A stretch of 64,000 nt of DNA from Leptolyngbyaceae cyanobacterium. GTDB taxonomy: Bacteria > Cyanobacteriota > Cyanobacteriia > Phormidesmidales > Phormidesmidaceae. The notes under the pieces were generated by a model. It was given only the letters and a program-made list of their open reading frames with translations, did no database searches and was not told the DNA's origin. Location: positions 1,600,001 to 1,664,000 of the forward strand of contig CBDHHL010000032.1 of assembly GCA_965263355.1 (NCBI GenBank), given 5' to 3'. A program made the translations under genes and the position numbers. Below are positions 27,175-46,888 of the stretch, in pieces (position 1 is the stretch's first letter; each line of letters opens with the position of its first letter).

Positions 27175-29415
27175 ATGAAGTATTCATTTGTCAACCAGCC
27201 TCGCGAAGAAGATTGCGGAATTGCCTGTATTGCAATGATTGCAAGGCACTATGGTCAGAAATTCACGTTGGCCCGTGTCCGTGAACTTGTTGGTACAGGA
27301 CAGTTAGGGGCATCTCTGTTGGGTCTTCAGCAAGGTGCTGAGGCATTAGGTTTTCAAGCCCGCTCTGGGCAAGCAACTGACGACATTTTTAATCGTATTC
27401 ATCGCCTGCCTTTGCCAGCTATTATTCACTGGGGTAGAGAGCGTTGGGTCGTTTTCTACGGCAAGGAGCAAAATAAATATGTGATAGCTGACCCAAGCGT
27501 AGGTATTCGTTACCTTAGTGCTGACGAAATTAAGCGCAATTGGGGTGATGGTGCAATGCTTCTGCTTGTACCAGATGAAGCGTTTTATCACTTGTCGACA
27601 GATAAGCCAAGCAGGATTGCAGGCATTCTACAGCAGGTTTGGCCTTATCGTTTAGCATTATTTCAAGTTGTTTTATACGGATTATTTATTGGGTTTCTAT
27701 CGCTTTCAATTCCATTTTTAATTCAGTTTATTACTGATGATGTCTTGATTGGGGGAGATACCCAGCTGCTGCCTAAGGTTGCGATCGCAGCAGCAGCTTT
27801 TTTTATAATTAAAAGCTTACTAAATCTAGTTCAAGTTACCCTGGTAGCCAATGTCTTTCAGCGATTAGAACTGGGGCTGACACTAGAATTTGGACGTAAG
27901 TTATTAAAACTACCTTTGAACTATTACGAAACCAGGCGTAGTGGTGAATTTTCCAGTCAACTTAAAGACATTTCCCGAATTCATGAGCTAATTGTCGATG
28001 GGGCAGTTCAACTACCTGGGCTGTTTTTTACTGCAATCGTGTCGTTTGGTTGCATGCTATTTTTCTACAGCCAGCGTCTAACCCTTCTATCGTTTATAAC
28101 AGCAGGGTTAATGTTAGGAACAACGCTGACATTGCTACCTGTATTTCAGGAACGTATTCGACGTCTATTATCACTGAACGCTAAAAACCAAGCCCTGCTT
28201 GTAGAGATTTTTAGAGGGGCTATGACCTTTAAGACGACAGCGGCTCAGCCTCAACTTTGGAAGGAGATGCAAGGACGATTTGGCAACCTGGCCAGTAAAA
28301 AAGCTAGTACCGTTCAACTTAGTTTTTTCACAAATCAGCTAGCAAACTTGATGTCGGGTGTTGGCCATATTGGTATCTTTTGCTTAGGCAGCACCATGGT
28401 TATTAGTCAAGAGTTGACCCTGGGTAAACTTTTCGCCTTTAGCATCATGAACTACGGCTTTCTGGAGTTTATTAACTCCTTAGTCAGATTTTCAGACAGG
28501 TTTATGGAAATCAAAACATCAGTACAACGGTTTGATGATGTGATTGATGTTGATGACGAGAGTCCAGATGATTGGCTAAAGCCCCTTGCTGAAATCCCTT
28601 CAAACGGTGATATCACATTCAATCAAGTGAACTTTCACTATCCAGGGCGATTCAATTTGTTAGAAACGTTTTCGCTGACCATTCCTGGAGGTAAATCCTC
28701 AGCACTAGTGGGCGCATCTGGTTCTGGTAAAAGTACGATTGCTAAGATTCTGGCTGGATTACATTCTTATCAGTCTGGTGAAGTATTAGTAGGACCCCAT
28801 AATTTACGTGATTTATCCACTGAATGTGTGCGTCAACAAATTGTTTTAGTGTCTCAAACCACCCATTTTTGGAGCCGCTCAATCTTAGAAAATTTCCAAC
28901 TTTGTGCACCAAAAGTGTCATACAACGAAGTAGTAGCGGCTTGTCGAATTACAGGGGCAGATAAATTTATTGATCAGCTACCAGATGGTTACTTAACAGT
29001 TTTGGGTGAGTTTGGCTCAAATCTTTCAGGAGGGCAGCTGCAGCGGTTAGCGATTGCTCGAGCCTTGCTACTGAAACCAGCTATCTTGATTTTAGATGAG
29101 TCAACTTCGGCGTTAGATCCCCTGAGTGAAGCTGAATTACTTCAAAAGCTATTGATGCATCGCAAGGGTCACACTACCGTTCTCATTAGCCATCGTTCCA
29201 GTGTGAATCGACTTGTAGACTGGGTAGCCGTGATTAATGATGGAGAAGCTGATATTGCAGGTTCTCCTGAGTATTTGCTTACTCAAGAAGGTGGTCATTT
29301 ACAATTTCTAGAGGGGACAACCCCCAATCTTTTAGACGGCTCCAGACGTCTAGTTGCTAGTAACAGCTCATCAGCGCCTGATCTCCCTTCCTTACCAGGC
29401 CCTGTCGAGAACTAA
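27175..29415 (+). CDS. Peptidase-domain ABC transporter (PCAT 1); the C39 domain lacks the catalytic His
   Basis: EEDCGIAC, IIHWGRERWVV (His position is Arg), IADP, a transmembrane domain, Walker A GASGSGKS, LSGGQLQR and LDESTSALD. Confidence 0.93.
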   Translation: MKYSFVNQPREEDCGIACIAMIARHYGQKFTLARVRELVGTGQLGASLLGLQQGAEALGFQARSGQATDDIFNRIHRLPLPAIIHWGRERWVVFYGKEQNKYVIADPSVGIRYLSADEIKRNWGDGAMLLLVPDEAFYHLSTDKPSRIAGILQQVWPYRLALFQVVLYGLFIGFLSLSIPFLIQFITDDVLIGGDTQLLPKVAIAAAAFFIIKSLLNLVQVTLVANVFQRLELGLTLEFGRKLLKLPLNYYETRRSGEFSSQLKDISRIHELIVDGAVQLPGLFFTAIVSFGCMLFFYSQRLTLLSFITAGLMLGTTLTLLPVFQERIRRLLSLNAKNQALLVEIFRGAMTFKTTAAQPQLWKEMQGRFGNLASKKASTVQLSFFTNQLANLMSGVGHIGIFCLGSTMVISQELTLGKLFAFSIMNYGFLEFINSLVRFSDRFMEIKTSVQRFDDVIDVDDESPDDWLKPLAEIPSNGDITFNQVNFHYPGRFNLLETFSLTIPGGKSSALVGASGSGKSTIAKILAGLHSYQSGEVLVGPHNLRDLSTECVRQQIVLVSQTTHFWSRSILENFQLCAPKVSYNEVVAACRITGADKFIDQLPDGYLTVLGEFGSNLSGGQLQRLAIARALLLKPAILILDESTSALDPLSEAELLQKLLMHRKGHTTVLISHRSSVNRLVDWVAVINDGEADIAGSPEYLLTQEGGHLQFLEGTTPNLLDGSRRLVASNSSSAPDLPSLPGPVEN

Positions 29416-29463
29416 TCAATTAACGCAAAAATTGTATTTAATTTGTCAATGTGAGTGTAACCC

Positions 29464-30660
29464 ATGAATCATGATGACGCTTTTTCCAATTCTATGTTTG
29501 ACTTGCCAGTTAAGGCGACCAAGTCAACATCGATTGAACCAGTCACTGACATTGACCTTGCAATTGAGCAAGCCAAATCTCCTGTCGGAACCTTAGCGGC
29601 CACCCAAGATTACCAATCTAGGCAGGTGTCTGTAGAGAAATCTCAGTCTCTAGCTTCATCTGTTGTAGATAATTTTTTACCTTCTCCAAATCGTTTTATT
29701 ATGCTGGGTGGTTTAGGCCTGGTTGCTGCACTGGGGATAGGGGGAGTAGCGGCCAATTTTATGACCTATCGCACCACAGTTAAGGCTCAAGCTGTTGTCC
29801 AGCCAGTAGGTGATGTGCAAGTCATACAATCTGGTATGGGAGGAGTTGTTGAAACTATTCTTGTGCAGGAGTATGACACCCTAAAGCCAGACCAGGTGAT
29901 TATTTCTTTTGAGAACTCACCTTTGCAGAATAAGCTGCTTCAAATCGAAGCCAGGATTGCTGGTACTGAGGAGCGCATCTTTCAGGTGGATGGTCAACTT
30001 AAGACCTTAGAACGACGACGATTGGCAGAATCAACTTGGTTACAGCAGCTCACTACATCGGGTTTAGGGATTGGGGGAGGTGCAGCCCAATTTGAATATT
30101 CGAAAGCACGCCTGCTTGAGTATCGCAATGATCTGGCTACTCAGCTTCAAGGAGAACGTGACCAGTTAAAGCAAGCTCAGCAGCAAATTGATAACTTGAT
30201 CATTCGGTCTCCAGCAGCTGGTAGTATTTATGATCTGCAACTAGACAAATTGGGCCAGACTGTAAACGCTAATGAAACTATTGCCAAACTTGTGCCCGAC
30301 GGAGTGGACTTAGAGATCAAAGCATTGATACCGGATACTCAGATTAAAAACGTTGAGGTGGGCTACCCTACGCAGATGAAGTTATCTCAATGTGCGTCTT
30401 TTAGCTTTGGTGCTTTAGAGGGGCAAGTCACTTCGGTAGAACCCCTTCAACCAGACGCAGATACAGATCTAGTCAAATCCAAGGATATCCCCCAAAATAG
30501 TTATATAGTAACCATAAACGCTCCTGAGAAAAGCTTGCAATCTGGCTCACGCATATGTGAGGTGTTGCCTGGTATGAAAGGAGAGTTGAAAATCATGGCT
30601 AATCAGGAAAAGCTTATGAATTTCTTTTTAAGGAAACTGCGTTTCAAAACAAATGTTTGA
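29464..30660 (+). CDS. HlyD-family type I secretion adaptor
   Basis: Single transmembrane helix, IRSPAAG, C..FSFGALEG and C..LPGM motifs; directly downstream of PCAT 1. Confidence 0.88.
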   Translation: MNHDDAFSNSMFDLPVKATKSTSIEPVTDIDLAIEQAKSPVGTLAATQDYQSRQVSVEKSQSLASSVVDNFLPSPNRFIMLGGLGLVAALGIGGVAANFMTYRTTVKAQAVVQPVGDVQVIQSGMGGVVETILVQEYDTLKPDQVIISFENSPLQNKLLQIEARIAGTEERIFQVDGQLKTLERRRLAESTWLQQLTTSGLGIGGGAAQFEYSKARLLEYRNDLATQLQGERDQLKQAQQQIDNLIIRSPAAGSIYDLQLDKLGQTVNANETIAKLVPDGVDLEIKALIPDTQIKNVEVGYPTQMKLSQCASFSFGALEGQVTSVEPLQPDADTDLVKSKDIPQNSYIVTINAPEKSLQSGSRICEVLPGMKGELKIMANQEKLMNFFLRKLRFKTNV

Positions 30661-30665
30661 GTTAC

Positions 30666-31325
30666 ATGGAAACTAACTTAGGACAGCCTGACGAACAACA
30701 AGAACAGCAGGAGGAGAAAGAGTTATTCCCCTCAGGGGGTAATTTAGCGTTTAGAGATATCACTCTAGTCGCTAATGATTTAGTGCTAGATACAGCCCCC
30801 CCCCCGCCTCAGCTCTATTCAAAATCTGGGGAACCTAAACAAAATTCCTATACTGTAGAGCTTTTCTGGGATGAGGCCTTAGTAACGGCAACTGAGTTAT
30901 TCTATGGTCAAACTACATATCTTTTAGAGAACATTGACTCACTACAAATTCTTAAATTACACGGAAAACGGTCAGTTATCAAAAAAAAGCTCAGCAATTT
31001 TCTAGCTGGAACGATAACGACAGTTGGATTAGTATTGCTCTTGGGCCCGGTTACCTGGTTTTTACATTTATTGGGTTTGATATTAGCGGTTGCTAGTATG
31101 GGCTATGCCATTTACTTTAATTGGTGGCTAGAGCAGCGTAGGCGAGGGGAGTTTGGCCTACTTATGACGATGAAATTAAATTCAAAAGTTGTTATCACAA
31201 GCCATAGCTTAAAAGCTATTCAAGCTCTTTATCAAATTATGTTTCGACGTTTAGATATGGCTGATCCCAATGGCGAATCTTTAATGGTCAATATGTATAC
31301 AGGCCAAACTATAAGTTACCAGTAG
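30666..31325 (+). CDS. Hypothetical two-helix membrane protein (DUF6232-like)
   Basis: Follows HlyD with almost no gap. TTYLLENIDSL precedes two hydrophobic helices. The family assignment is tentative. Confidence 0.65.
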   Translation: METNLGQPDEQQEQQEEKELFPSGGNLAFRDITLVANDLVLDTAPPPPQLYSKSGEPKQNSYTVELFWDEALVTATELFYGQTTYLLENIDSLQILKLHGKRSVIKKKLSNFLAGTITTVGLVLLLGPVTWFLHLLGLILAVASMGYAIYFNWWLEQRRRGEFGLLMTMKLNSKVVITSHSLKAIQALYQIMFRRLDMADPNGESLMVNMYTGQTISYQ

Positions 31326-31452: not shown

Positions 31453-32787
31453 CTAGAGTTGAGTTGTTAACCTTAGCTTACGCCACACTATTCTTGAAAC
31501 AGATTCCCTTCGAGTAAGAATATCAGCTCGTCCTGTCATCCCAGCTTGTAAATCACAGGATGCATATTTACTGCTCAGGACAGGACGTGAAAGTTGAAGT
31601 GTAATCTCGTATAATCCACTGCTGGTAGTATTACGAATTTCATCAGGTAAAGCTTCTGGCAATAGTGTATCTGGAGAAATAGTCTTAACCTTAGCCGCTA
31701 GAGTGCCATAATCAGTATATGGGCAAGCGGAAATACGTAGCTGAGCAGATTGATTATTCTCGATAGTATTAATATCTTGTGGCTCTACCCAAGCTTTTGC
31801 AAGCAGGGAGGCATCACTGGCTGCAATTTGAGCAATTGGATCACCTAGGTTAACCACTTGGGCATTATTGCGTAACTCTAACATCTGAATCGTACCTGAT
31901 ACCGGGGCTCTTAGGGTTAGTAAGGCTATTTCGGTCTGAGTCTGGGTCTGGTCTCGTTGAATTTGATTTAGCTGATCTAAAAGGTTGCTTCTTTGCTGAG
32001 TCAGAGTTTCAGACTCTTGCTGTAATTGGGCTAAGGTAGCGCTGCCCTGGGCTTTGGTCTGAGTGATTTGTTGCTGGGCAATCGCTAATTCAGCACGACT
32101 AGGCTGCGAAGTTGCCTTAGCTTTTTCAAATCGCGCGATCGCAGTTTCCAGAGCCACTTCCTGTTCTCGTAGTTGACTGGCGGCAATCGCCCCTTGCTCG
32201 ACCAGTTGGCTATAACGCTCTGTATTTTCTTGAGCAAACTCAATTTCTGCCTGGATCTCACGCAGATCGGCCTGATTGACTAACTGGCGTTCTATCAACT
32301 CTTGTTGAGCTAGGGTTAACTCTGCCACTGTTGCTTTTAAATTACCTTGAATTTGTTCAGCAGTAGCGGTTGTGCGTTGCTGGAGTGATTGTAGCTGATT
32401 GTCAATTTGAGTTAGCTGCTGTTGAATCTGAATCGCGCTAGTCTGTAATTGCACCGCTTGATTTTGGAGCTGGGTGTCATCCAGATATGCGATCGCATCT
32501 CCCACATTTATCCACTCATTTTCCTGCACCATAATTTGACGAATCCGCCCTGAAGCGGTCGCCTCTACCAGGCGCAAATCTCCTTCAGGACGGATCATGA
32601 CAGGAGCTTTAATTGTTTCGTTGTAGGTTACAGTCTGGCATAAAAGAAAAACTGTACCTACTGTAATAACGCCCGCTAAACCACTCAACCGTTGCCATAA
32701 GCGTAATGGTGGCAACAAGTCTTCTGGTACTATTTCAGGCAAAATAGCCAGACTATCCGATTGATCGTTAGGTATATCAGTTTGCAT
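31453..32787 (-). CDS. HlyD-family type I secretion adaptor
   Basis: Long coiled coil, LRAPVSG, ISACPYTDYGTL and LQAGMTGRADI. Confidence 0.92.
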   Translation of the reverse strand: MQTDIPNDQSDSLAILPEIVPEDLLPPLRLWQRLSGLAGVITVGTVFLLCQTVTYNETIKAPVMIRPEGDLRLVEATASGRIRQIMVQENEWINVGDAIAYLDDTQLQNQAVQLQTSAIQIQQQLTQIDNQLQSLQQRTTATAEQIQGNLKATVAELTLAQQELIERQLVNQADLREIQAEIEFAQENTERYSQLVEQGAIAASQLREQEVALETAIARFEKAKATSQPSRAELAIAQQQITQTKAQGSATLAQLQQESETLTQQRSNLLDQLNQIQRDQTQTQTEIALLTLRAPVSGTIQMLELRNNAQVVNLGDPIAQIAASDASLLAKAWVEPQDINTIENNQSAQLRISACPYTDYGTLAAKVKTISPDTLLPEALPDEIRNTTSSGLYEITLQLSRPVLSSKYASCDLQAGMTGRADILTRRESVSRIVWRKLRLTTQL

Positions 32788-32803: not shown

Positions 32804-34948
32804 TTAGGGAGTTAAGAAGAACCAATGTTCTCCTGGTTGTTTCGATAGTTCAGAGGGTTCACCTTCAAGGGCTAGTTCACCACGGTCAAGCATTACTAAC
32901 CAGTCAGCTTGCAAAATTACACGGGGACGATGACTAATCATGATAGTGGTTTTCCCCTTACGATAGAACAACAGTTTATCTAATACACGCATTTCTAAGT
33001 CAGGATCCAGGGCGCTGGTAGACTCATCTAAAATCAGTACAGGTGGGTCTTTAACAATAGCCCGTGCTAGAGCCAAACGCTGAAGCTGTCCTCCAGAGAG
33101 ATTTGCACCAAATTCTCCTAAGATAGTTTGAAACTTTTCTGGCAAATCACCAATAAATTCATCAACCTGAGCAATCTGGCAAGCCTGGATGATTTTTTCA
33201 AAGCTGATGTTAGGATTGCCGACATAGAAGTTTTCTAAAATAGAACGGTTCCAAAAGTGAGCTTGTTGGGGAACAAGTACGACTTGCTGCCGTAAGCAGT
33301 CAAGAGAGAGATCGCCCTGGTTGTAACAACCATAGCGAATGTTGCCAGACTGCAATGTATATAGCCCAGCAATCAGCTTAACGAGCGTACTTTTACCACA
33401 GCCAGAATGACCAATCAGTGCGGTTGCCTGCCCTCCTGGTATAGTTACAGAGAAATCCTTAAGCAGGGCAACACGCCCTATATGGCAAAAGTGTAACTGC
33501 TCGCACACAATATCATCTGTACCGGGCAGAGGTGCAAAGGGTTTATTTTTATTATTCACATATTCATTTGGAGCATTAATCACCTCCGAGAGTCGCTGGG
33601 CTGCTACACGGGTACGGGTAACCTCATCACTTAGCTCTACGAGGGACTCCACAAGCAGAGTAATATACTGATTGAGGGTATTAAATGCTAGCAGTTGGCC
33701 AATTGTAAGTTCTTGTTTTGTAACTAGCCAACCTCCTATCCAGAGGATGATAATTGCTCCCACTGAAGATAGTAACCGAGAAAAAACACTATTTGCGATC
33801 GCCAGCTGATTTCTCTCCAAAGCCAGCCGCCCCAATCGACTAAATCGACGTTGAAACTCATCCCAAAACTGCGGTGCCGCATAAATTGTCTTAAGAGTTA
33901 ACGCTCCTTTAAAGGTTTCTACCAATAACCCCTGATTATCAGCATCAGTGATTAATAGATTTTGCGTACGGACTTTGAGGGCAGGCCACAACGCTACCAT
34001 TGACAGTGTCATGAGCAATGCAGCCCCCAGAGCTACCCCTGTTAAGAGTCGGCTATAAGCCACCATAAGCCCCAATGCAATCAGTGCAACAAACGTCTGG
34101 GTAGGCACCGTAATAATACTTTGGGCAATTAATTGGTTAACCGTTTGAATATCTTGCAGACGACTGATCGTCTCACCACTACGATGGGACTCAAAATAAC
34201 TTAAGGGCAACTGTAATAGCTGTCGCCCAAAGTTTAAAGTGAGCTTAAGTTCCAAACGCTGAGCAAAGTGTGCAATCAAATTTGACTGTACCCAGCTCAT
34301 AAAGCTGCGTAATCCATTTAGAGTCACCACCACAATGGCAATGGTGCCGAGCATACGTAAATCTTGACGGACTAAAATATCATCCGTCAACATCTGAATA
34401 AGCAGTGGCAAAGCTAAGGCCAGTAATCCAATACCTAAATTGATCAACAACGCTTCAGTGAGCAATTGCCGGTAAGGTTTTAATGCTCTTAGAAAGCTAC
34501 CGAACCCCTCTACAGGATCATTTTCATGGGCATAAAACCGGGCATCGTCCAGTTCCAGCAGTAGCATGACTCGGTCAGCCCAGCTTTTTACCAGGTCGTC
34601 TCGGGTTAAACGCCTTACCCCTACTGCCGGATCGGCAATCACATAGCGCTGCCTCTTCTTGCCGTAGAGCACTACCCAGTGATAGCCACGCCAGTGAATA
34701 ATAGCTGGTAGGGGAGCTTCTGCTAAGCGATCAATTAGCTGATCGCTAGCTTGTACAGCTTGGGCTTGAAACCCCAAAATCTCTGCACCGCGTCGTAAGC
34801 CTAGTAATGTAGTGCCTAATTGCCCGGTGCCTACCATTTCACGCATACGGCTAAGGCTAAAATTTCGGCCATAGTACTTAGCTACTGTCGCTAAACAAGC
34901 TGCACCACAATCTTCTTCACTGTGCTGTAAAACAGATGCATATCTCAT
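32804..34948 (-). CDS. Peptidase-domain ABC transporter (PCAT 2) with an intact C39 Cys/His/Asp triad
   Basis: QHSEEDCGAAC, IIHWRGYHWVV, IADPA, Walker A GHSGCGKS and LSGGQLQR. Confidence 0.95.
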   Translation of the reverse strand: MRYASVLQHSEEDCGAACLATVAKYYGRNFSLSRMREMVGTGQLGTTLLGLRRGAEILGFQAQAVQASDQLIDRLAEAPLPAIIHWRGYHWVVLYGKKRQRYVIADPAVGVRRLTRDDLVKSWADRVMLLLELDDARFYAHENDPVEGFGSFLRALKPYRQLLTEALLINLGIGLLALALPLLIQMLTDDILVRQDLRMLGTIAIVVVTLNGLRSFMSWVQSNLIAHFAQRLELKLTLNFGRQLLQLPLSYFESHRSGETISRLQDIQTVNQLIAQSIITVPTQTFVALIALGLMVAYSRLLTGVALGAALLMTLSMVALWPALKVRTQNLLITDADNQGLLVETFKGALTLKTIYAAPQFWDEFQRRFSRLGRLALERNQLAIANSVFSRLLSSVGAIIILWIGGWLVTKQELTIGQLLAFNTLNQYITLLVESLVELSDEVTRTRVAAQRLSEVINAPNEYVNNKNKPFAPLPGTDDIVCEQLHFCHIGRVALLKDFSVTIPGGQATALIGHSGCGKSTLVKLIAGLYTLQSGNIRYGCYNQGDLSLDCLRQQVVLVPQQAHFWNRSILENFYVGNPNISFEKIIQACQIAQVDEFIGDLPEKFQTILGEFGANLSGGQLQRLALARAIVKDPPVLILDESTSALDPDLEMRVLDKLLFYRKGKTTIMISHRPRVILQADWLVMLDRGELALEGEPSELSKQPGEHWFFLTP

Positions 34949-36236: not shown

Positions 36237-36422
36237 ATGTTCCGCACAAAAGATCGACAAGTATCCAGTAACGTTTCACCAGAGTCTTCTCAAAAGACGC
36301 AATCTACACAATTGTGGCAAGCTCTAACAGAAATCGAACAAGAAGTTCCTAAGGGTGGGTTTGGTTTCCCTGGCTTTCCCGGTGGTCCTATGCGTCCTGG
36401 TGATGGAAGAAAAAGAGGATAG
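36237..36422 (+). CDS. Double-glycine precursor peptide 3, core FGFPGFPGGPMRPGDGRKRG
   Basis: Leader ends LWQALTEIEQEVPKGG; tandem paralog of precursor 2. Confidence 0.9.
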   Translation: MFRTKDRQVSSNVSPESSQKTQSTQLWQALTEIEQEVPKGGFGFPGFPGGPMRPGDGRKRG

Positions 36423-36470: not shown

Positions 36471-36653
36471 ATGTTTTTAAACTTGCACTGTCAATCATCA
36501 ACTAAGACAAGAAGTCAGTCTACAGCACAGAATTCATCAACAAATCAGTTATGGACAAAGCTGACAGAGTCTGATCAAGAAATCATCAAGGGAGGGAATG
36601 GACTCGTTTTTTTCTTTCCTGGATTTCCACCATCAAGAGAACGTAATCATTAA
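36471..36653 (+). CDS. Double-glycine precursor peptide 4, core NGLVFFFPGFPPSRERNH
   Basis: GGAG at 36461 and ATG at 36471; leader ends LWTKLTESDQEIIKGG. Confidence 0.88.
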   Translation: MFLNLHCQSSTKTRSQSTAQNSSTNQLWTKLTESDQEIIKGGNGLVFFFPGFPPSRERNH

Positions 36654-36802: not shown

Positions 36803-39484
36803 ATGTATAACCCCAAAAAATATTATTTCAGATGGGTTGGTTATCTCAGCATTATAGGTATTCTGGGCTGCACATTGCCAAGCGTAGCCCAATCAACCCA
36901 AATTGTAGGTGACAACTCGATTGGTACCCTGGTTAATGGTAATCTTTCAATTCCTTGCACTGGCGGCATCTGTTCAGTTACCGGTGGCACTCAGATAGGT
37001 ACAAGCCTTTTTCATAGTTTTGAGCAGTTTTCCCTACAGTCTGGCGATGAAGCTCGCTTTAATCATAACGGAATTGAAACAATTTTTACTCGTGTAACGG
37101 GAAGCAATTCCTTTATCGATGGTACTATTAGCACTGCAACACCGACTGATTTCTTCCTATTAAACCCCCAGGGAATTATCTTTGGTCCTAATGCGAGCCT
37201 TAATATCGGAGGTTCTTTTCTAGCGACTACAGCTGATAGCATCGTCTTTGACAATGACGTGACATTCAGTGCTAGTAATCCCACAACCCTAGGCAATTTA
37301 CTCAGCATTAGCACTCCTGTAGGTGTGCAGTTTGGCACAAATCCAGGTCCTATTAAAGTGCAAGGTCCAGGACACCAAATGACTCCATTTTTTACTACTG
37401 AGTTTACCCGCACTAATCGCCCTAACGGCTTACAGGTCACCAATGGTGAAACCCTTGCAATACTGAGTGGTCCTCTCACGATTGACGGTGGTAATCTGAC
37501 TGCTACAGGTGGACATGTAGAACTGGCTAGCGTTACCAAAAATGGTTTTGTCGATCTATCAACAACGAGAACCGGGCCTTGGTCGTTTGATTATATCGAA
37601 ACACCTAACTTGCAAGATATTTCGTTGACTAATGCAGCTTCCGTAGATGTAAGTGCATCTAATGGTGGCTCTGTGGGGATAAAAGCTCAAAATCTTTCCC
37701 TTAGTGGTGGTTCTGTGATTGCAGCTAATCTTCAAGGTGCTGGTACTAGTAACGGTTTAACGATTAATACAGAGAGTTTATCGATTCAGGGTTCCATTAA
37801 CGGTATCAACAGCGGTCTTTACAGCGATGCTGAGTTTCCAGCTACAGGCCAGGGTGGCGATATTGATGTTCAAACTCAACAACTCTCAATTTCTGATGCT
37901 GGCCGTATATCGGCCATTACCTTTTGGGATGCTGATGCCGGTGACATTCAAGTAGATACCGATAATCTGACCATAGATGGAGGGAGTTTTATCGTTTCAT
38001 CAGCTTATCCTTTTATCTCGGGCAGCACTGGCAACGTAGACGTCAATGCCAACAACATTAGATTAAGTGGGGGAGCTCAGATAGCAACTAGTAATTTTGG
38101 GTTTGGCTCCACTGGTCAATTAACAGTCAATGCCGATCAAATTATGATCATAGGCACAGATATTAATGGAAGAATTCAAAGTGGCTTTGAGGCTATTAAT
38201 GTTTTCGGTACTGAAGGCGAAGTCGTTGTAAATGCAAACCAAATTCGAATTTTAGACGGTGGGCAGATTACGGCTAGTACCCAGGGTCCTGGAGCTGGGG
38301 GACAGGTGACCATTACGGCTAACCTGCTTGAAGCCAACGGTACTGCCACGTTAACTAATGTTCCTAGTGGAGTATCTACAAGCGCGTTACCTAGTCCTCC
38401 TGCATTTGCTGCCCTCGGAGTCACTTCCACAGGAGACGGCGGTAATTTAACCTTGATTGTTGACCAGTTATATCTAACGGATGGTGCCAACATTGGTGTG
38501 GGCACCTTTGCTGATGGTGATGCCGGTAATATGACTATTCAGGCAAAAAATATTATTGAGTTAGCGGGTGTATCACCAGTGGGTCGTACAGGCCTATTTG
38601 CCAGTAACATTGAGGGTACAGGCGATGGTGGCAACATTAATTTAGAGGCAGAACAAGTTATCATCCGTAATGGAGCCACCGTTAGCGCCAGCAGTTTTCA
38701 AAGTCTCGGGTTAGCTCCTCCCGGTCAAGGAGCACCAGGCAATATTGAGATTAGGGCGGATAATTTATCATTAAATAATGATGCCAGCATTGCTGCTGAC
38801 ACCATTGCGATGAATCACGAGTTAGGCAATATCTTGCTCGATTTGGAGACCCTTACCCTACAGCAGGGTAGCCGCATTAGTACCAATGCCCAGGGGAGTT
38901 CGACAGGGGGAAATATTGTGATAGATGCGATCGCACTAATCGCCACAAACAACAGTGATATCTCCGCTAATGCCCAACAAGGTATTGGTGGTCAGATTGT
39001 TGTTAATGCCGATCTAATTTTAGGCACAGCCTTTCGCCCTCAGCTAACCCCCCAGAGTGATATCACCGCCAGCTCGGAATTAGGTCCCACATTTAGCGGT
39101 AGCGTTGAGCTTAACACTCCTGAGCACGAGCCAGGAGAAAGCTTAACCATATTGCCAACAACACCAGCTGACAATACCCAACAAATTACTCGCCAATGTT
39201 CATCAACTGGTAACTCACTTGTGGTTTCTGGTCGAGGAGGAACAGCTCCTGTTCCCAATGAGATTCTTAGGAGCAATACACTCTGGACAGATTTACGCAT
39301 GTTACAAAATCATAGGCTATATCCAGGGACATCAGTAACACCTGAAAGTTCAATTATTGATAACACCTCAAACTCCAATAATCAGGTATTTGAAGCTCAA
39401 GGAGTTGCCTTTGAAGATGGACAGGTAAAACTTTTAACAACAGCCACTACTACCCAGGCAGACATGACGCATATGACATGCTAA
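36803..39484 (+). CDS. Filamentous haemagglutinin-like (TPS-domain) beta-helix exoprotein
   Basis: Signal peptide, SLFHSFEQF, FLLNPQGIIFGPNA, G-G-G-I-I repeats, and the cyanobacterial tail SDITASS..C....GRGG.P. Start placed at the ATG at 36803. Confidence 0.92.
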   Translation: MYNPKKYYFRWVGYLSIIGILGCTLPSVAQSTQIVGDNSIGTLVNGNLSIPCTGGICSVTGGTQIGTSLFHSFEQFSLQSGDEARFNHNGIETIFTRVTGSNSFIDGTISTATPTDFFLLNPQGIIFGPNASLNIGGSFLATTADSIVFDNDVTFSASNPTTLGNLLSISTPVGVQFGTNPGPIKVQGPGHQMTPFFTTEFTRTNRPNGLQVTNGETLAILSGPLTIDGGNLTATGGHVELASVTKNGFVDLSTTRTGPWSFDYIETPNLQDISLTNAASVDVSASNGGSVGIKAQNLSLSGGSVIAANLQGAGTSNGLTINTESLSIQGSINGINSGLYSDAEFPATGQGGDIDVQTQQLSISDAGRISAITFWDADAGDIQVDTDNLTIDGGSFIVSSAYPFISGSTGNVDVNANNIRLSGGAQIATSNFGFGSTGQLTVNADQIMIIGTDINGRIQSGFEAINVFGTEGEVVVNANQIRILDGGQITASTQGPGAGGQVTITANLLEANGTATLTNVPSGVSTSALPSPPAFAALGVTSTGDGGNLTLIVDQLYLTDGANIGVGTFADGDAGNMTIQAKNIIELAGVSPVGRTGLFASNIEGTGDGGNINLEAEQVIIRNGATVSASSFQSLGLAPPGQGAPGNIEIRADNLSLNNDASIAADTIAMNHELGNILLDLETLTLQQGSRISTNAQGSSTGGNIVIDAIALIATNNSDISANAQQGIGGQIVVNADLILGTAFRPQLTPQSDITASSELGPTFSGSVELNTPEHEPGESLTILPTTPADNTQQITRQCSSTGNSLVVSGRGGTAPVPNEILRSNTLWTDLRMLQNHRLYPGTSVTPESSIIDNTSNSNNQVFEAQGVAFEDGQVKLLTTATTTQADMTHMTC

Positions 39485-39501: not shown

Positions 39502-39545
39502 TAAGCTACATGTTATTGGCATACTTGCCAATAACATGTAGCTTA
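39502..39545. terminator. Bidirectional terminator between the convergent FHA-like genes
   Basis: Perfect 20-bp inverted repeat TAAGCTACATGTTATTGGCA-TACT-TGCCAATAACATGTAGCTTA. Confidence 0.8.
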
Positions 39546-41828
39546 GCCTAAACAGTTTAAGGAACTTTGAACTAAGCCGTTCTGTGAACCGTTGATTAAT
39601 TCAACCTGACCGTTCTCGTTAACCGACCATCCCTGAGCCTCTATTAAAGTGGTTTCAATGTTGATGACTTCAGTATTAGTTTTTTCAGTATTAACCGTTT
39701 CACTAACAGAAGACTGAAATTCAAAGGTATTTTGAGTGGTGTCATTTCCCCATCGGAGATCTTGCCAGACAGTCTCTCCTCTCAACATTTGATTGGCATT
39801 TTGAGGTACTCCCCCTCGACCAGATACAACGAAAGTGTTATCTGCTTCTAGGGCACAGGCTGTTCGAATTTGTTCTTGATTGACTATGACTTGGGGTAAT
39901 GCGATCGCACCCTGCGTCGGATCAATCTCTGGTGTAATCAGCACTACCTGACCACTAAATTCTGCCCCTTGCTCCGAAAAAGCGGTGATATCATTATCGG
40001 GCGTTAGTATATCGCGGAACTCCGCTCCAAAAACCCCCCCTGCATCAACAGAAATCTTACCCCCAAAGCTATTCACGGCATTGGCTGTAATATCGCTATT
40101 ACCAATGGCTATGAGCGTGCCCGTATCTAAATTAATGTTTCCACCTGTGGCGTTCCCCGTCGCACTGGTTGTAATAAGACTGCCATTTTTCAAAACAATA
40201 GCATCTGCTTCGAGATCAATGTTGGCTCCACCCCCATCCACACTATCGGCAGTTAGCAGCGACTGACTGTCCAACAAAATGACTTCAGCACCTTGTACCT
40301 GAATACTGCCAGCCGCTCCCGTTCCGGATGGAACACGTGATGTGGGACTACTGGGAGAATTACTAACATTTATGGTTGCCCCATCTCGCAAGCTGAGATA
40401 AGGGGTATTGACGGTAACATTACCCCCTGAACCCGCTTGAAACAGCGCATTGGCAAATAATCCACTGCGACCATCGTCAGTATTGCCTTCCAACGTAACG
40501 GACTCTGTCGCGTTAATGCTGACACTGCCAGCATCGCCAGTTGTCTGTGTACCGCTGACAATCTGACCACCCTCCGTCACGATCAACCGTGCAGTGTCGA
40601 TAACAATCTGTCCACTAGAACCAGTATCAACAGAAATTATGCTTCCAGTGTTTCGATCTCTAGTAATGGAGGTGGTTGCGGCAATATTACTAGGACCATT
40701 CTCTGAGAACCCTGCCACCTCAATTGTTTCTGTATTTTGGATAGTAACATTACCACTATTTCCAGAACCTAATGTCCTGGAAAAAATACTACCTCCATTA
40801 ATCAGGCGAATATTATCTGTCTGAACATTGATATCTCCACCCGACGCTGTGCTGCCAAAGACCGACACTATACCAATAAAGTCATCACGGGGAGAATCCG
40901 TGTTATCTATGATCAATGTATCGGCACTGACATCAATCTGACCCAGTTCACCCGATCCGAAACTACCCAAAATCACCTGAGTACCGCCGGTAAGGCTGAC
41001 CGTTGGTGCATCCAAAATAATCCGGTTACTACCATCGCCATCACCAACTAACCCATTTTCAACCGTTCCCCCAGTCATGGTGATAGCTTCAGTCGCCGTT
41101 AGTTGAATAGCTCCTCCACTAGGTCCTAAAATATCAAACACCTGGATTTCAGCCCCTGGTGTTAGTGCCACATTGCGTCCTACAAACGCTAACGTTTGCC
41201 CATGCAGTCCGCCTAGGCGGGCAAACCCACCAGACCCAGTAGGCGTATTAACAACAATATCCCCAGAATTAGCCCCTAGCTGTAGCCCAATGGGAGTACT
41301 TACTGTCAGTAAAGACACAACCGTTGGATCACCTGAATTAATAACAGCGGAGTCAAAAGTTATATTTTCTGCTGTACTGGCAATAAAGTCACCTGAAACA
41401 TCTAGAGCAGCATCTGCCCCAAAAATAATGCCATTGGGATTGATTAGGAAAAGATTTGCGGGGCCATTAACAGCTAGGGTGCCATTAATAGTAGATACAT
41501 TGCTGGAATCAACAGCCGTAATTTGTCCAATAATATTTACAACACCTGGATCATCAAAGGTAACCGTTGCACCTGTATCTACATTAAACGTCTGAAACGA
41601 ATGCATTAAGCTAGTGTCTCTTCGTGTGCCACCTGTAATCAGGCAGGAGCCTGAACAGTTAGTTCCACCGTTTAATAAGGTTGTTGTGTCATCTTGAACA
41701 ATTGATTGAGCAACCGCTGAATACCCTAAGAAAAGACTACCCATGGTTAAGCTACTTACCCAGGGAAGTAGCTTGAGTAAAACTGTAGGTGGTTTCCAAT
41801 AATTTTCCCAAGAAATCATAGGCATCAT
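39543..41828 (-). CDS. Filamentous haemagglutinin-like (TPS-domain) exoprotein
   Basis: SLMHSFQTF, NLFLINPNGIIFG, NDITAFS and SGRGGVP..EAQGW. Confidence 0.92.
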   Translation of the reverse strand: MMPMISWENYWKPPTVLLKLLPWVSSLTMGSLFLGYSAVAQSIVQDDTTTLLNGGTNCSGSCLITGGTRRDTSLMHSFQTFNVDTGATVTFDDPGVVNIIGQITAVDSSNVSTINGTLAVNGPANLFLINPNGIIFGADAALDVSGDFIASTAENITFDSAVINSGDPTVVSLLTVSTPIGLQLGANSGDIVVNTPTGSGGFARLGGLHGQTLAFVGRNVALTPGAEIQVFDILGPSGGAIQLTATEAITMTGGTVENGLVGDGDGSNRIILDAPTVSLTGGTQVILGSFGSGELGQIDVSADTLIIDNTDSPRDDFIGIVSVFGSTASGGDINVQTDNIRLINGGSIFSRTLGSGNSGNVTIQNTETIEVAGFSENGPSNIAATTSITRDRNTGSIISVDTGSSGQIVIDTARLIVTEGGQIVSGTQTTGDAGSVSINATESVTLEGNTDDGRSGLFANALFQAGSGGNVTVNTPYLSLRDGATINVSNSPSSPTSRVPSGTGAAGSIQVQGAEVILLDSQSLLTADSVDGGGANIDLEADAIVLKNGSLITTSATGNATGGNINLDTGTLIAIGNSDITANAVNSFGGKISVDAGGVFGAEFRDILTPDNDITAFSEQGAEFSGQVVLITPEIDPTQGAIALPQVIVNQEQIRTACALEADNTFVVSGRGGVPQNANQMLRGETVWQDLRWGNDTTQNTFEFQSSVSETVNTEKTNTEVINIETTLIEAQGWSVNENGQVELINGSQNGLVQSSLNCLG

Positions 41829-42373: not shown

Positions 42374-45300
42374 ATGGTCCAGTTCAACTTTACCTACGAC
42401 CCTGGAATTTCTGTAGAACAGCGTACTGGCTTTGAGCTAGCAGCCCGCATCTGGGGGGCCTATCTGACCGATGACATTACCGTTAACCTCCACATTGCCT
42501 CGGTTGATGAGCTTGAAGGTAATGCCATTGGCGGAGCGGTGCCAGTTTTATACGAGCAAAACTATGGCGTTTTTACTCAATATCTGGAGAACGATGCCAC
42601 TAATTCATCAGTGGATCAGCAAGCCCTTGAGAGTTTGCAGGATGGTAATACGGTAGATGTTATTGTTGACGGGGAAGTCATTGATGGGAATAGTCAGCTT
42701 TTACTCACGTCTGCCCAAGCAAAAGCCCTGGGTATGGATGAGGCGCTTGCGCTTGAAAATGGTGGCACCTGGGACCGTGACTTAGTCGAGCCAGATGGAT
42801 TAGATGGCTACATTGTCATCAACCAAAGTTATGACTGGAACTATGACTTTCTACGGGAAGGGAAGGCACCTGCAAGCACATTAGACTTTCTTAGTCTAGC
42901 GATGCATGAGATTGGTCATCAACTTGGTTTTGTCAGCGGTCTAGATGGTTTGCTCAATATTGAAGAGCTTCATTCTGGCGAGACCCAGGTCGATGGCTTT
43001 ACTGTTCTGGATTTATTCCGTCATACGGTAGAGAGTAGCGATGTCGATAATGCAGACGGTGCCGTTAGCGACCTAACGTTAGGCGCTAATGCCTATTTTT
43101 CCGTAGATGGTGGCACTACTGACCTTGGAGAGTTTTCTGATGGACAGAGACTCCAAGCCGCTCACTGGAAACGGATGAAAGATGCTTTGGGCATTATGGA
43201 TCCCACGCTGGCCTATCGAGAACGGCTCAGCCTAACAGAACTTGACCTACAGGCGTTTGATGCCCTGGGGTATGAGGTTAACTATGGAGTGCTGGATGGA
43301 CTGGATATCAGTACCCTGCTAAATGAGGCAGAAATAGCCGTCAACAGTTCATTAGCCAATTCCTCTAGTGATAGTGGTTTGCTAACCAGTACAGCTTCGG
43401 GTGATGGTGTTCATCAGGGTATGAGTGATGAAGAATGGTGGCAGATTTTTGAAGAACAGCTAGGCTCTCTAGGTTGGAGCGATTGGTGGCAGATTATAGA
43501 CCTGGGTTTTGGCGGATGGTGGCAAAAATTTGGTCAATCTTTAATCAATCAGGGCTATGGCCAATGGTGGCAAATCTTTGAGCAGAATATCAGTCAAGGG
43601 TTGAGTACCTGGTTCCAAAGGTTGGAAACTACATTTTTTGATCTGGGTTTTGGGCGATGGTGGCAAAAGTTTGATCTGGGAAATATTTCCTGGTGGCAAG
43701 AGCTAGAGCCCTTTTTCTTAACGGTAGATAATGCTGTTGAGGGTTCTACCCCAGTTGACAGTGCCACGACTGACAACAGCATCTTAGAAACGGCTGTTGA
43801 TATCGTGCTGAGTGGAAACGTCGACAATATTTTAGCGGGAGATGAAAACCATAACCAGATTTATGCTGGGGCTGGAGATGACCTGATTGATGGAAAAGCT
43901 GGGGATGATGAGCTTTGGGGAGAAGCCGGGCGCGATACCATCTATGGTCACGATGGTAATGACAAGATTTACGGTGGTGAGCACAATGACTTGCTAATGG
44001 GAGAAGCCGGTAATGATGAACTCCACGGTGGTGAAGGTCATGATATCTTAAGCGGCGGCGAAGGAAAGGACATTCTGCACGGAAATAAAGGGCATGACGA
44101 TCTGCGTGGTGGTGATGGTGACGACATACTATCGGGCAATGATGGTCACGATCGCCTGGAGGGTGACAGTGGTAACGATCTCCTAATAGGTGGTAAAGGG
44201 CATGATGAACTCAATGGTGGCAGTGATGACGATATTGTCTTTGGTGATGCCTATTTGTCTGAAGATGAAGCATTACTCGAACAGCTAAAACAGAAAATAC
44301 AAGAACCTGAGAGTTCTGGCAGCACCTCAGCAACACCCTCAACTAATTCTGAGTCACAGCAAGTTATCTCGTTCGAGAATATTCTTGTGACTCATTTAGA
44401 GTCAAATGTTCTAGAGAATTTGACGACACAAAACTCTGAGGGTGAGGAATCTGTAGATGAAGCATCTTCCACCGATTCTGAACCAACTGTATTAGGTGAT
44501 GCTATTCGAATTGAAGCCGAATCCATGGCCCTGAATGGATATCATACAGAATATACAAGTGTTGCTTCGAATAATCGATTGATACGTACTAAATCCAGCG
44601 GCATCGCCAGTACATCTTTTACGGGGGACACTGGTTATTACAACATTGTGGTTGCCTACTATGATGAAAATGATGGGCTAGCGCGGCTCTCTGCTAGTTT
44701 GGCAGGTGTGGAACTAGACGATTGGCAGTTAAATCAAAATCTGGGATCCGACAGAGCAAGCACTAACAACTTAGTCACACGCACTATTGCCACTCAAGTA
44801 CAGATAAATACTGGGGATCTTCTAGAGCTTCAAGGGCAAAGAGAGTATAACGAATTTGCTCGCATTGACTATGTAGAGTTTATTCCGGTGTCTGCTCCGG
44901 TGGTTGTTGAACCAACAGTTGCGACTGATGGTGACACTCTTCAGGGTGGGTTTGGTAATGATATTCTTTTTGGTGGAATAGGTGACGATCTGATCTATGG
45001 TGAATCTCAAGCTGATAACACCAGCAGTCTGTTGCAAGGAGCCCAAACCTATAATGGGCATACTTATCTGCTGACTGAGATTGGCACCTGGAATGAAGCT
45101 CAAGCCGATGCTCATATATTAGGTGGTAACTTGGTTACCCTCAACAATTCAGAAGAAGAAGCTTGGTTGCAACAGACATTTGGTACGTCAGAAAGTTTCT
45201 GGTTGGGAATTAATGACCAACGAGTAGAAGGACAATTTGAATGGGTTAGTGGTGAAGCGATCACCTATATGAACTGGGCGCCTGGTGAGCCAAATGATAC

Positions 45301-46579
45301 TGGGGGAGGACAGGACTTTGGTCGACTGAACTATGGCAGTAATAACCAGTGGGATGATACTCAACATAATGGTTTTTGGGATCCGGATGCTTCTAAGTGG
45401 GTAGAAGGCCTACGCGGCATCATAGAGATCGACGCAGCCAATAGCGATATTCTTGTAGGAGGCGTGGGTAACGATACCCTATATGGCAATGCAGGCAACG
45501 ACACTCTCTACGGTGACAATCTAGAGAATGTAAGTGCTTCTTTAACAAGCGGTCTGGTTGGCCATTGGGGTCTTGATGAAACCACAGGTATACAAGCCAA
45601 CGATACTACCGGTAGCCACTCAGGAACACTCAGTCATATGACTAGTAGCCAATGGACTACTGGCCAAGTGGGTGGTGCCTTATCCTTTGATGGATATAAC
45701 GATCGAGTGATTGTTGCTGATTCATCAGCTCTCGATATTACCAATACCCTGACTCTAGCAACCTGGGTCAAAGCAGATACATTTGAATACTTGGACGGAC
45801 TGATTGTCAAAGGAACGTCTAACATTCCCTATGCTTTGGATTTAAGCAATGATGGTAGATTGATCTTCACAGCCAACTATAGATCTAGCTTATTAGGAAG
45901 TTTGCTTGGCAGTAGTGGTGGTGAATGGTCTTCTAATACTGCTCTCCAAGCTAATAAGTGGCACCATGTGGCTGTCACTTATGACGGCAGTTATTTACAG
46001 TTTTACGTTGATGGTCAGTTGGATAGTAGCCATCAGGCAAGTATTACCTTTGATAGCAACGACGAATCTTTCGTATTAGGTGCTGATTTGGCAGGTGGTT
46101 CTCATCTTGATGGGGCTTTGGATGATGCCAGAGTTTATAACCGGGCATTGACCGCTGATGAAGTGGTTGAGTTGGCTACCTTAACAACCGAGAAGATGAT
46201 TGGAGGAAATGATACTTTAATAGGCGGTGTAGGTAACGACACTCTGGTGGGTGGAGTTGGCAATGATAGTTTGAATGGAACGGATGCTATAGCGGTTGGC
46301 TATTTCGAAAAAGATACGCTAACCGGTGGTCTCGGAATCGATACCTTTATTCTTGGAGATGCTAACCACATTTATTATCAAGGTAAGGAGAATCAAGACT
46401 ATGCTCTGATCACAGACTTCAATTCTGGTGAAGACCTGATCGTTTTACATGGCACCGCCAATGATTACACCCAATCGCAACAAGGAAATGATACTTATCT
46501 ATATGCCAGCTCAGACCTTGTAGCTGTTTTTGAAAATATTTCCAACTTAAACCTCAGCGTTGGGGTTGTCTTTGCATAA
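42374..46579 (+). CDS. Secreted zinc metalloprotease (NF038122-like N-terminus) with RTX repeats, CBM-like, C-type lectin and LamG domains
   Basis: HEIGHQLG zincin motif, many GGxGxD nonapeptides, IRIEAE..IDY carbohydrate-binding module, C-type lectin motifs WLGIND and NWAPGEPN, LamG motifs WHHVAVTYDG and RVYNRAL. No Sec signal; RTX-type C-terminus. Confidence 0.88.
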   Translation: MVQFNFTYDPGISVEQRTGFELAARIWGAYLTDDITVNLHIASVDELEGNAIGGAVPVLYEQNYGVFTQYLENDATNSSVDQQALESLQDGNTVDVIVDGEVIDGNSQLLLTSAQAKALGMDEALALENGGTWDRDLVEPDGLDGYIVINQSYDWNYDFLREGKAPASTLDFLSLAMHEIGHQLGFVSGLDGLLNIEELHSGETQVDGFTVLDLFRHTVESSDVDNADGAVSDLTLGANAYFSVDGGTTDLGEFSDGQRLQAAHWKRMKDALGIMDPTLAYRERLSLTELDLQAFDALGYEVNYGVLDGLDISTLLNEAEIAVNSSLANSSSDSGLLTSTASGDGVHQGMSDEEWWQIFEEQLGSLGWSDWWQIIDLGFGGWWQKFGQSLINQGYGQWWQIFEQNISQGLSTWFQRLETTFFDLGFGRWWQKFDLGNISWWQELEPFFLTVDNAVEGSTPVDSATTDNSILETAVDIVLSGNVDNILAGDENHNQIYAGAGDDLIDGKAGDDELWGEAGRDTIYGHDGNDKIYGGEHNDLLMGEAGNDELHGGEGHDILSGGEGKDILHGNKGHDDLRGGDGDDILSGNDGHDRLEGDSGNDLLIGGKGHDELNGGSDDDIVFGDAYLSEDEALLEQLKQKIQEPESSGSTSATPSTNSESQQVISFENILVTHLESNVLENLTTQNSEGEESVDEASSTDSEPTVLGDAIRIEAESMALNGYHTEYTSVASNNRLIRTKSSGIASTSFTGDTGYYNIVVAYYDENDGLARLSASLAGVELDDWQLNQNLGSDRASTNNLVTRTIATQVQINTGDLLELQGQREYNEFARIDYVEFIPVSAPVVVEPTVATDGDTLQGGFGNDILFGGIGDDLIYGESQADNTSSLLQGAQTYNGHTYLLTEIGTWNEAQADAHILGGNLVTLNNSEEEAWLQQTFGTSESFWLGINDQRVEGQFEWVSGEAITYMNWAPGEPNDTGGGQDFGRLNYGSNNQWDDTQHNGFWDPDASKWVEGLRGIIEIDAANSDILVGGVGNDTLYGNAGNDTLYGDNLENVSASLTSGLVGHWGLDETTGIQANDTTGSHSGTLSHMTSSQWTTGQVGGALSFDGYNDRVIVADSSALDITNTLTLATWVKADTFEYLDGLIVKGTSNIPYALDLSNDGRLIFTANYRSSLLGSLLGSSGGEWSSNTALQANKWHHVAVTYDGSYLQFYVDGQLDSSHQASITFDSNDESFVLGADLAGGSHLDGALDDARVYNRALTADEVVELATLTTEKMIGGNDTLIGGVGNDTLVGGVGNDSLNGTDAIAVGYFEKDTLTGGLGIDTFILGDANHIYYQGKENQDYALITDFNSGEDLIVLHGTANDYTQSQQGNDTYLYASSDLVAVFENISNLNLSVGVVFA

Positions 46580-46593
46580 GTAAGGTTCAAGAG

Positions 46594-46627
46594 ACTATCG
46601 TGTCATTGCCTACAGTGACACGATAGT
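46594..46627 (+). terminator. Stem-loop after the metalloprotease gene
   Basis: ACTATCGTGTCATTG-CCTA-CAGTGACACGATAGT. Confidence 0.65.
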
Positions 46628-46654
46628 TGTCAACTCTCAATTAAGGATTAATAC

Positions 46655-46888
46655 ATGTTGTTCAAAAATGCAATCCACCCTTGGAGAGGTTCTGACTTAA
46701 CATTAGTCGTACCCTTTGGGATATCCACTAAAGTATTAACTTGTCAGTTAGCCATCCTCTTAGTATGCAGCTCCTTGTTGTTGAACTATTGTTTGCCGTC
46801 TAATCAAACACAGACCTACGCATCAGCGACGGAAGAAATCCTACGTCAAGGCATCCCAAAGGGTCGAATTTCTGGTGCAAGCCGTTAG
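46655..46888 (+). CDS. Small putatively exported protein ending in GIPKGRISGASR
   Basis: AAGGA ribosome-binding site, a hydrophobic stretch LAILLVCSSLLL, and a C-terminal G-x-P-x-x-R-x-x-G-x-x-R motif. Confidence 0.6.
   Translation: MLFKNAIHPWRGSDLTLVVPFGISTKVLTCQLAILLVCSSLLLNYCLPSNQTQTYASATEEILRQGIPKGRISGASR

Follow-up and report, generated by a model that had tools for sequence, protein, structure and literature searches.

C39 peptidase domains cleave peptide precursors after a Gly-Gly (GG) motif, and the products are exported through an HlyD adaptor and an outer-membrane channel. Here, we analysed genes of this type in a 64,000-nt stretch of a Leptolyngbyaceae cyanobacterium genome (the window), where positions 27175..46888 encode two peptidase-containing ATP-binding cassette (ABC) transporters (PCAT1 and PCAT2), four GG precursors (P1–P4), two FHA-like proteins (FHA1 and FHA2) and several other proteins (Table 1). 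The relatives used for comparison were 172 genomes of the same family, with genomes labelled G, loci L and proteins P0xxx. We found that the stretch is a patchwork of three units and not a single island: the PCAT1 operon, a cassette of HlyD2, PCAT2, the peptides and FHA1, and a set of passengers.

The general design has precedents, and the papers cited for it here are represented by excerpts. The group III clusters of Wang 2011 (PMC3140520) contain a short-type C39-ABC transporter, HlyD and tandem GG precursors, with a mean of 3.9 per cluster. The window cluster matches the excerpts of that survey in its short-type PCAT, HlyD and adjacent GG precursors, and also in having no LanM, S8 peptidase, SurA or extra ABC transporter devoid of a peptidase (PCAT1 still has its C39 domain). 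It departs from them in a leader with an LW motif and a long Ser/Gln-rich N-terminus, in cores of 14–22 residues, and in its linked TpsA-type protein and adjacent unrelated PCAT with a His-to-Arg site. The PteB/EbfG1–4 system of Synechococcus elongatus PCC 7942 (PMC4997328; bioRxiv 2022.07.13.498973) likewise has one active PCAT (predicted to be PCAT2 in the window), HlyD and four GG proteins, and mature EbfG1 and EbfG2 have Pro/Tyr-rich starts that loosely resemble the FGFPGFP of the window peptides. However, EbfG cores are 6–7 kDa and those of EbfG1–3 carry an A-hydrophobic-N-I-small amyloid motif, whereas the window cores have neither feature, and a linked TpsA, present in the window, does not appear in the passages describing PteB/EbfG. 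PCAT-HlyD-GG clusters of Anabaena have already been proposed to be EbfG-like, according to the excerpt of PMC12267927.

With both the general design and the biofilm reading in print in these excerpts (PMC3140520, PMC4997328, PMC12267927), the undescribed system that the first-pass annotation had proposed is not supported. The locus is a composite in which a known cluster type is combined with three features not reported before, namely the link between LW micro-peptides and a TpsA protein, a probably disarmed PCAT kept lineage-wide, and a stand-alone DUF928 motif. New in the first of these are the lineage-limited LW-leader family with cores of 14–22 residues, for which Table S3 of PMC3140520, outside the excerpts, may list related precursors, and the position of FHA1 orthologues directly behind LW peptides in 5/5 relatives, twice without an exporter. 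A literature search, with most subscription papers outside its reach, returned nothing relevant on a GG-peptide/TpsA link or a His-to-Arg PCAT, and nothing on DUF928 function or its connection with CHAT, the term DUF928 itself occurring in a single paper.

The peptide cassette and FHA1

The leader motif LWxxL[ST]ExxxExxxGG occurs four times in the six frames of the window and was absent from 100 shuffles. The predicted cores carry net charges of 0 to +3. The description of the peptides as aromatic-rich holds for the P1 core, in which F/W/Y make up 57% of residues, and not for those of P2–P4, which are 15–22% aromatic, rich in Pro, Gly and Phe, free of Cys, and share Phe-Pro-Gly-Phe-Pro. The cores are under selection: the first seven core codons of P2 and its L001 orthologue show 0/16 non-synonymous and 3/5 synonymous differences, nine codons of P2 and P3 show 0/20 and 5/7, respectively, and the core start FGFPGFP recurs in further library peptides. 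The P4 core (window 36597–36650) contains LVFFF, which resembles the LVFF core of amyloid-beta, and the Phe run is kept in homologues (L001, P0006).

P1–P4 match no NCBIfam or Pfam model. Using a leader profile built from 48 sequences, we found LW peptides in 16 of the 172 family genomes. Clustered at 50% identity, the family falls into 65 groups across the whole library, of which 52 have the Trp leader, and it is lineage-limited and hypervariable. The CTB family (NF038167) is similar in its related leader and its tandem precursors beside PCATs 54–60% identical to PCAT2, but P1–P4 do not match it at E ≤ 10 and lack the conserved CTB core. The LW peptides of relatives score 13–16 bits on the CTB model (cut-off 32), compared with 60–87 bits for Nostocales controls. 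Large dispersed expansions of LW peptides are present in G039 (24 matches; L107, L132–L147) and G033 (9 matches; L148–L150), and [WYF]-C-x-x-T-x-K, with one Cys only, is common to many of their cores. Searches of these two genomes for LanC-like and YcaO genes found none. Upstream of the peptides at L150, L140, L142 and L121 lie shared elements at similar distances before the LW codons (GGTAAATACG / GGGAAATACG at ∼250–270 nt, CTTCATA at ∼200 nt and ACATAGT at ∼110 nt), which may be a promoter motif; the upstream k-mers common to the G039 and G033 peptides are largely absent before those of the window.

Family scans of the open reading frames (ORFs) in the 27175..46888 stretch gave no match to LanM, YcaO, radical SAM, P450 or ATP-grasp, as first annotated. 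The window does have two radical SAM genes at a distance of more than 17 kb; they resemble HemW and MoaA. None of the five relatives' genomes with the cassette had a LanC-like gene (25 of the 172 family genomes were positive) or a YcaO gene (controls positive); PatG was also found in 0/5, with its control equally silent. A single SPASM gene is present in 4/5 cassette genomes and is 91–92% conserved in 5/5 genomes without the cassette. No dedicated tailoring enzyme was found in cis in the stretch, nor in trans in the five relatives for LanC-like and YcaO (P450 and ATP-grasp were not searched in trans). The peptides look unmodified and non-classical, as had been suggested. At L110:4033-8165, a PCAT cluster with several LW peptides adjoins a gene for a PatG-like S8 protease and has a regulator-like gene upstream; it is possibly a modified variant of the system.

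PCAT2 comprises C39, transmembrane and nucleotide-binding domains, and its closest relatives are from Leptothoe sp. PORK10 BA2 (85% identity) and cyanobacterium J06554_1 (75%). For a wider comparison we took the 80 best PCAT2 relatives, of which 63 have at least one GG peptide, identified by pattern, at the locus; only L022 has two such PCATs.

Proteins with a TPS domain are exported by two-partner secretion (TPS). The model of FHA1 shows the TPS domain and β-helix that define a TpsA protein (mean predicted local distance difference test score 79.8, with the last 120 residues below 50), and its best structural matches are EtpA, HxuA and HMW1 (Foldseek E 8e-8 to EtpA). The fold is that of the TpsA adhesins and binding proteins EtpA, HxuA, HMW1 and FHA, but identity is only 12–16%, and no TpsB gene is found within the window. 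Orthologues of FHA1 at 54–75% identity occur in 5/172 genomes (G001, G002, G033, G039 and G047), all five 0.2–0.3 kb behind co-oriented LW peptides; at G039:C33 and G033:C4, FHA1 and the peptides are found without a PCAT in the stretch fetched. A sixth match, in G028 (45% identity), has no peptide alongside. The conserved unit is the peptides plus FHA1, and HlyD2, PCAT2, the four GG peptides and FHA1 together form a variable cassette. The proposed linkage to adhesins stands for FHA1, kept in all five relatives with an orthologue, and falls for FHA2 and the RTX protein, which do not travel with the peptides.

A TPS gene, from one of four TPS lineages, lies within 1 kb at 11 of 35 peptide loci (G038:C2, with no peptide, and G156:C28 are left out), against 0.22 expected from genome-wide TPS density; with the five seed loci removed the count is 6/30. 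Complex prediction for FHA1 (1–760 of the modelled chain) with residues 34–63 of P2 scored 0.02, which we weigh neither way. The C-terminal region of FHA1 (window 39170–39200) has an NTLWTDLR that resembles the leader LWxxL, probably by coincidence because WxDxR is general in such FHA tails.

The PCAT1 operon

The two exporters had been described as twins, but they are not equivalent. PCAT2 has the catalytic His90, whereas position 90 of PCAT1 is Arg (codon CGT at 27442–27444); in structure 4RY2, also of a PCAT1, the aligned residue is the His within RLAHFVV. Gln8, Cys14, Asp106 and the ATPase motifs of the window's PCAT1 are intact, and its positions 90–106 keep the 16-residue His-Asp spacing of ComA (His96–Asp112 in the excerpt of PMC8277102). 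PCAT1 orthologues are present in 17/172 family genomes, with Arg at site 90 in 15/18 genomic orthologues and His in 3/18. Across 27 proteins of the clade the residue is Arg in 18, His in 7, Asn in 1 and Ser in 1 (non-His in 20/27), four outgroup proteins keep His, and a FastTree tree of the clade forces at least six His/non-His changes. The C39 domain is under purifying selection (dN/dS 0.02–0.29, 8 pairs), and the ATPase motifs of the orthologues are intact where present. Cys14 is kept in 18/18 genomic orthologues, which says little because 70/133 columns of the domain are invariant.

As the catalytic His is Arg here and is non-His in most homologues, PCAT1 is probably a non-cleaving or weakly cleaving exporter, in effect disarmed. 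The C39-like domains of HlyB-type exporters, as covered in the excerpt of PMC8277102, similarly have a C39 fold under selection with a broken catalytic set. However, HlyB-type domains lose the Cys, whereas PCAT1 keeps it, loses the His and toggles between His and Arg; its origin, moreover, is among peptide PCATs, and no RTX cargo is linked to it. In a quick tree, PCAT1 and PCAT2 (46% identity) fall in different clades and are not sister duplicates, the sister of PCAT1 being a His-bearing PCAT that likewise precedes HlyD and DUF6232.

The genes for PCAT1, HlyD1 and DUF6232 form a conserved operon that in most cases follows DUF4912 and DUF937 genes. Seven genomes (G034, G035, G037, G038, G045, G046 and G050) have a saccharopine-dehydrogenase-like gene 1.5–4.8 kb behind it with an SLH gene between (two more in G037), and at this site after DUF6232 none has HlyD2, PCAT2, peptides, FHA or RTX. 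The proposal of one undescribed island with twin peptide exporters is not supported, since the PCAT1 operon is conserved on its own, encodes a degenerate protease site and lies at a site otherwise empty in seven genomes.

LW peptides occur in 5/7 PCAT1 genomes with a His-type PCAT2-like exporter and in 0/10 without, a marginal G038 match corresponding to no peptide at the locus (Fisher p 0.003, or 0.035 counting G038, uncorrected for kinship and with a profile built partly from those genomes). The co-occurrence that had been suggested as a check on the leader was seen with PCAT2-like exporters and with FHA1 (5/5 orthologues), and not with NF038122 genes (0/19 loci). CTB precursors were found in 0/9 PCAT1 genomes without the cassette, with one working control. 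Given that no LW peptides were found in PCAT1 genomes without a PCAT2-like exporter and no CTB precursors in the nine, the peptides are probably not the cargo of PCAT1. The likeliest cargo is a protein from another locus that has no GG motif or is not cleaved. Nif11 genes are present in 5/5 genomes tested, and no conserved small ORF upstream of PCAT1 stood out among the matches listed. DUF6232 was rejected as a peptide immunity protein, since it accompanies PCAT1 instead.

Short DNA blocks upstream of PCAT1 (window 26900–27175) are conserved among orthologues: GGGGCACATTTA, and CCCAGGGCACATAC just before the start. Further upstream, and also conserved there, window 22755–25829 encodes a fusion in which a transmembrane segment joins a phosphate-binding-like domain to three DUF4912 repeats. 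In relatives the empty site is filled by an SLH-domain protein that ends in a long stretch of Asp residues (L083:8193-9185 and orthologues) and was not seen among the window ORFs.

Neighbouring genes and the variable site

FHA2 has one clear orthologue (G039:C76, 58%), with no PCAT or peptide beside it. Homologues of the RTX/NF038122 protein are found in 26/172 genomes, including 2/17 PCAT1 genomes, where they are on other contigs; from 43 matches, 19 loci were read, and in 0/19 is there a C39 exporter, an HlyD or an LW peptide in the vicinity. In G041 the SLH and dehydrogenase genes of this site are immediately preceded by a close RTX orthologue, which marks the site as a variable spot for surface genes. 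FHA2 and the RTX metalloprotease are passengers at this site.

The 77-residue protein has no Pfam or NCBIfam match and does not contain the full PF06051 domain; it matches the N-termini of DUF928 proteins, with only the N-terminal motif aligning. Its last 16 codons are constrained (pN 0.16, pS 0.58), and G033 has a separate stand-alone version, which on this sequence evidence point to a real micro-protein and not debris. The window and G001 (L001) are the only two cases in which the gene is found with the cassette, and in G001 it is directly behind FHA1; in both, the protein ends right after the motif, exactly at its last Arg, as a CHAT cleavage product might, although this is speculation. Full DUF928 genes sit in an operon of DUF928, TPS-CHAT and CHASE2-GGDEF-EAL (domains confirmed in G001; gene order also in G002 and G034). 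At L172:10234-17796, L173:3023-10470 and L175:3690-10588 a C39 exporter of the NHLM type, with two ABC genes, is encoded within a few kb of this operon. A PatX/PatS identity was rejected for the small gene, which lacks the RGxGR motif of those peptides.

Gene order, strands and families were all confirmed as first annotated, with PCAT1-HlyD1-membrane protein converging on HlyD2-PCAT2, and the four shared-leader precursors divergent from PCAT2 and followed by the two FHA genes, the RTX gene and the small gene. Contigs from two sequencing runs cover all 30 bins of 28500–48400 with no joints, one contig spanning 32121–40200; as these runs may be of the source sample, this is a check on the assembly only. 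Sigma-70 and terminator scans were at chance level (33 vs 38 and 13 vs 16.5). Elsewhere in the window, positions 12031–16146 encode an RND permease fused to a C-terminal TPR region, behind a PadR regulator and an adaptor, and two ORFs with an identical 194 residues at 60206–61822 encode DpsA and a thioredoxin-like 2Fe-2S ferredoxin, which are unrelated families.

Table 1. Features of the 27175..46888 stretch, in window coordinates (aa, amino acids; TM, transmembrane)
Feature	Position	Strand	Remarks
PCAT1, short-type C39-ABC exporter, catalytic His to Arg	27175..29415	+	Probable non-cleaving exporter; conserved operon
HlyD1 periplasmic adaptor	29464..30660	+	Operonic with PCAT1
DUF6232-like two-TM membrane protein	30657..31325	+	Pfam match below cut-off; accompanies PCAT1, not the peptides
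HlyD2 adaptor, peptide cassette	31453..32787	-	
PCAT2, short-type C39-ABC exporter, Gln8/Cys14/His90/Asp106 intact	32804..34948	-	Predicted processor and exporter of P1–P4
GG precursor P1, 54 aa	35357..35521	+	Predicted core FYYYYDNRSCCYYY, 14 aa, Tyr-rich, Cys pair
GG precursor P2, 63 aa	36020..36211	+	Predicted 22-aa core, start FGFPGFPGGP
GG precursor P3, 61 aa, P2 paralogue	36237..36422	+	Predicted 20-aa core
GG precursor P4, 60 aa from ATG	36471..36653	+	Predicted 18-aa core with LVFFFPGFP; ORF-tool start is TTG 36459
FHA1, TpsA-type: TPS domain, predicted ∼740-residue β-helix, low-confidence C-terminal tail	36785..39484	+	
20-bp perfect inverted repeat between converging FHA1 and FHA2, terminator-like	39502..39545		
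FHA2, second TPS protein, 29–36% identity to FHA1	39543..41828	-	
NF038122 metalloprotease (HEIGH at 178), RTX repeats, C-type lectin, LamG	42374..46579	+	No N-terminal hydrophobic signal
77-aa small protein: hydrophobic signal-like stretch and RQGIPKGRISGASR	46655..46888	+	Matches DUF928 N-terminus; stand-alone gene

Proposed function and alternatives

From the gene content, we propose that PCAT2 would cleave the four precursors after Gly-Gly, with the cores leaving through HlyD2 and a TolC-type channel encoded elsewhere, and FHA1 by two-partner secretion. The cores, presumably unmodified, would then act with FHA1 at the cell surface in attachment or aggregation, in the manner of EbfG, while the PCAT1 operon would export other cargo, probably uncut. 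We judge this explanation as a whole to be evenly poised between right and wrong; the gene anatomy beneath it is far more secure.

Several observations weigh against it. Cores 2–4 have many Pro residues and no EbfG-type amyloid motif, and mature EbfG is roughly three times as large, so that P1, and perhaps P4, would alone suit a role as matrix fibres. No TPS neighbour is present at 24/35 LW-peptide loci, and a TPS gene is found at only 1/78 non-Leptothoe loci among the 80 best PCAT2 relatives. TPS genes also lie in the fetched stretch of 6/19 RTX loci, so the peptide-TPS adjacency may be part of a general clustering of genes for surface and secreted proteins. G033 has nine peptide matches and FHA1, yet no short-type PCAT was found there; the flanking dehydrogenase gene is missing there too, and the genome is perhaps incomplete. 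As for the disarmed exporter, 7/27 PCAT1-clade proteins keep the His and the Cys, Gln and Asp are retained, so residual cleavage is possible.

It is possible, though unlikely, that the cores are secreted signals or identity tags for which FHA1 is the cognate surface receptor, feeding the DUF928/TPS-CHAT/CHASE2-GGDEF-EAL cyclic di-GMP (c-di-GMP) pathway with the small DUF928-motif protein as a modulator. Such a role would suit very short, hypervariable cores from a dispersed family (24 matches in G039) whose arrays adjoin TPS genes of four separate lineages, and a small gene that follows FHA1 directly in G001, has its motif under purifying selection, and shares that motif with full DUF928 genes in the TPS-CHAT operon. 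However, family scans found no sensor kinase or regulator in the cassette, the small gene keeps company with it in just two genomes, RTX genes have a similar rate of TPS neighbours, and the role of the DUF928/CHAT operon is itself putative.

That the peptides are unmodified antimicrobials, akin to microcins or class II bacteriocins, with the surface genes mere neighbours in a variable region, we consider unlikely. The classical GG leader with PCAT-HlyD export, the charge and Pro/Phe-rich composition of the cores, their patchy presence and rapid turnover, and the weak leader likeness to the CTB 'bacteriocin' model would all be in keeping with this. But the peptides have no constant companion that could serve as an immunity gene (that for the two-TM DUF6232 protein goes with PCAT1), the linkage to FHA1 persists across 54–57% divergence, and the CTB label is, in the excerpt of PMC9846622, an annotation and not a tested activity.

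A single secretion island of 20 kb, with PCAT1 as a second peptide exporter or a dedicated type I exporter of the RTX protein, is very unlikely and is largely refuted by distribution. The convergent twin arrangement does recur in G002, G039 and G047, the third-codon-position GC content of the region is lower (0.35–0.40 vs 0.47–0.50), an RTX orthologue occupies the same chromosomal site in G041, and RTX exporters typically have a C39 domain that does not cleave (PMC8277102, in excerpt). Yet RTX homologues are rare in PCAT1 genomes and on other contigs, their loci are without C39 or HlyD, the FHA2 orthologue is unlinked, and G001 carries the PCAT1 operon and the PCAT2 cassette at unlinked loci.

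In the prochlorosin system, one promiscuous enzyme acts in trans on dispersed precursors. An equivalent modification of these peptides by a distant enzyme, as ribosomally synthesised and post-translationally modified peptides, is very unlikely despite dispersed precursors with one leader, the [WYF]CxxT motif of relatives' cores (19/65) and, in G039, two peptides with a radical SAM gene of the SPASM type ∼1.3 kb away, given that no LanC-like or YcaO genes were found in the cassette genomes, the SPASM gene is conserved without the cassette, and P2–P4 have no Cys.

A bolder extension, which we regard as quite unlikely, is that each GG micro-peptide is the ligand of the TpsA protein encoded beside it. 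Such cognate pairs would make up a surface code that diversifies and by which filamentous cyanobacteria recognise kin or aggregate, and the DUF928-motif peptide would connect it to the TPS-CHAT/CHASE2 c-di-GMP pathway, with the disarmed PCAT kept lineage-wide as a non-cleaving exporter.

For genome mining, the PCAT1 clade is a warning, as it is annotated as a 'bacteriocin-processing peptidase' (P0016) and is probably not one; the same His-to-Arg clade offers a natural probe of PCAT export without cleavage. The stand-alone DUF928 motif is a handle on a pathway scarcely covered in the literature. Hundreds of cyanobacterial GG-peptide clusters are labelled as bacteriocins, while in the literature covered a tested role exists for EbfG only. 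Here the cores are so short that they are easy to synthesise, and their TpsA partner is fixed, which makes the question of matrix, signal or antibiotic directly testable.

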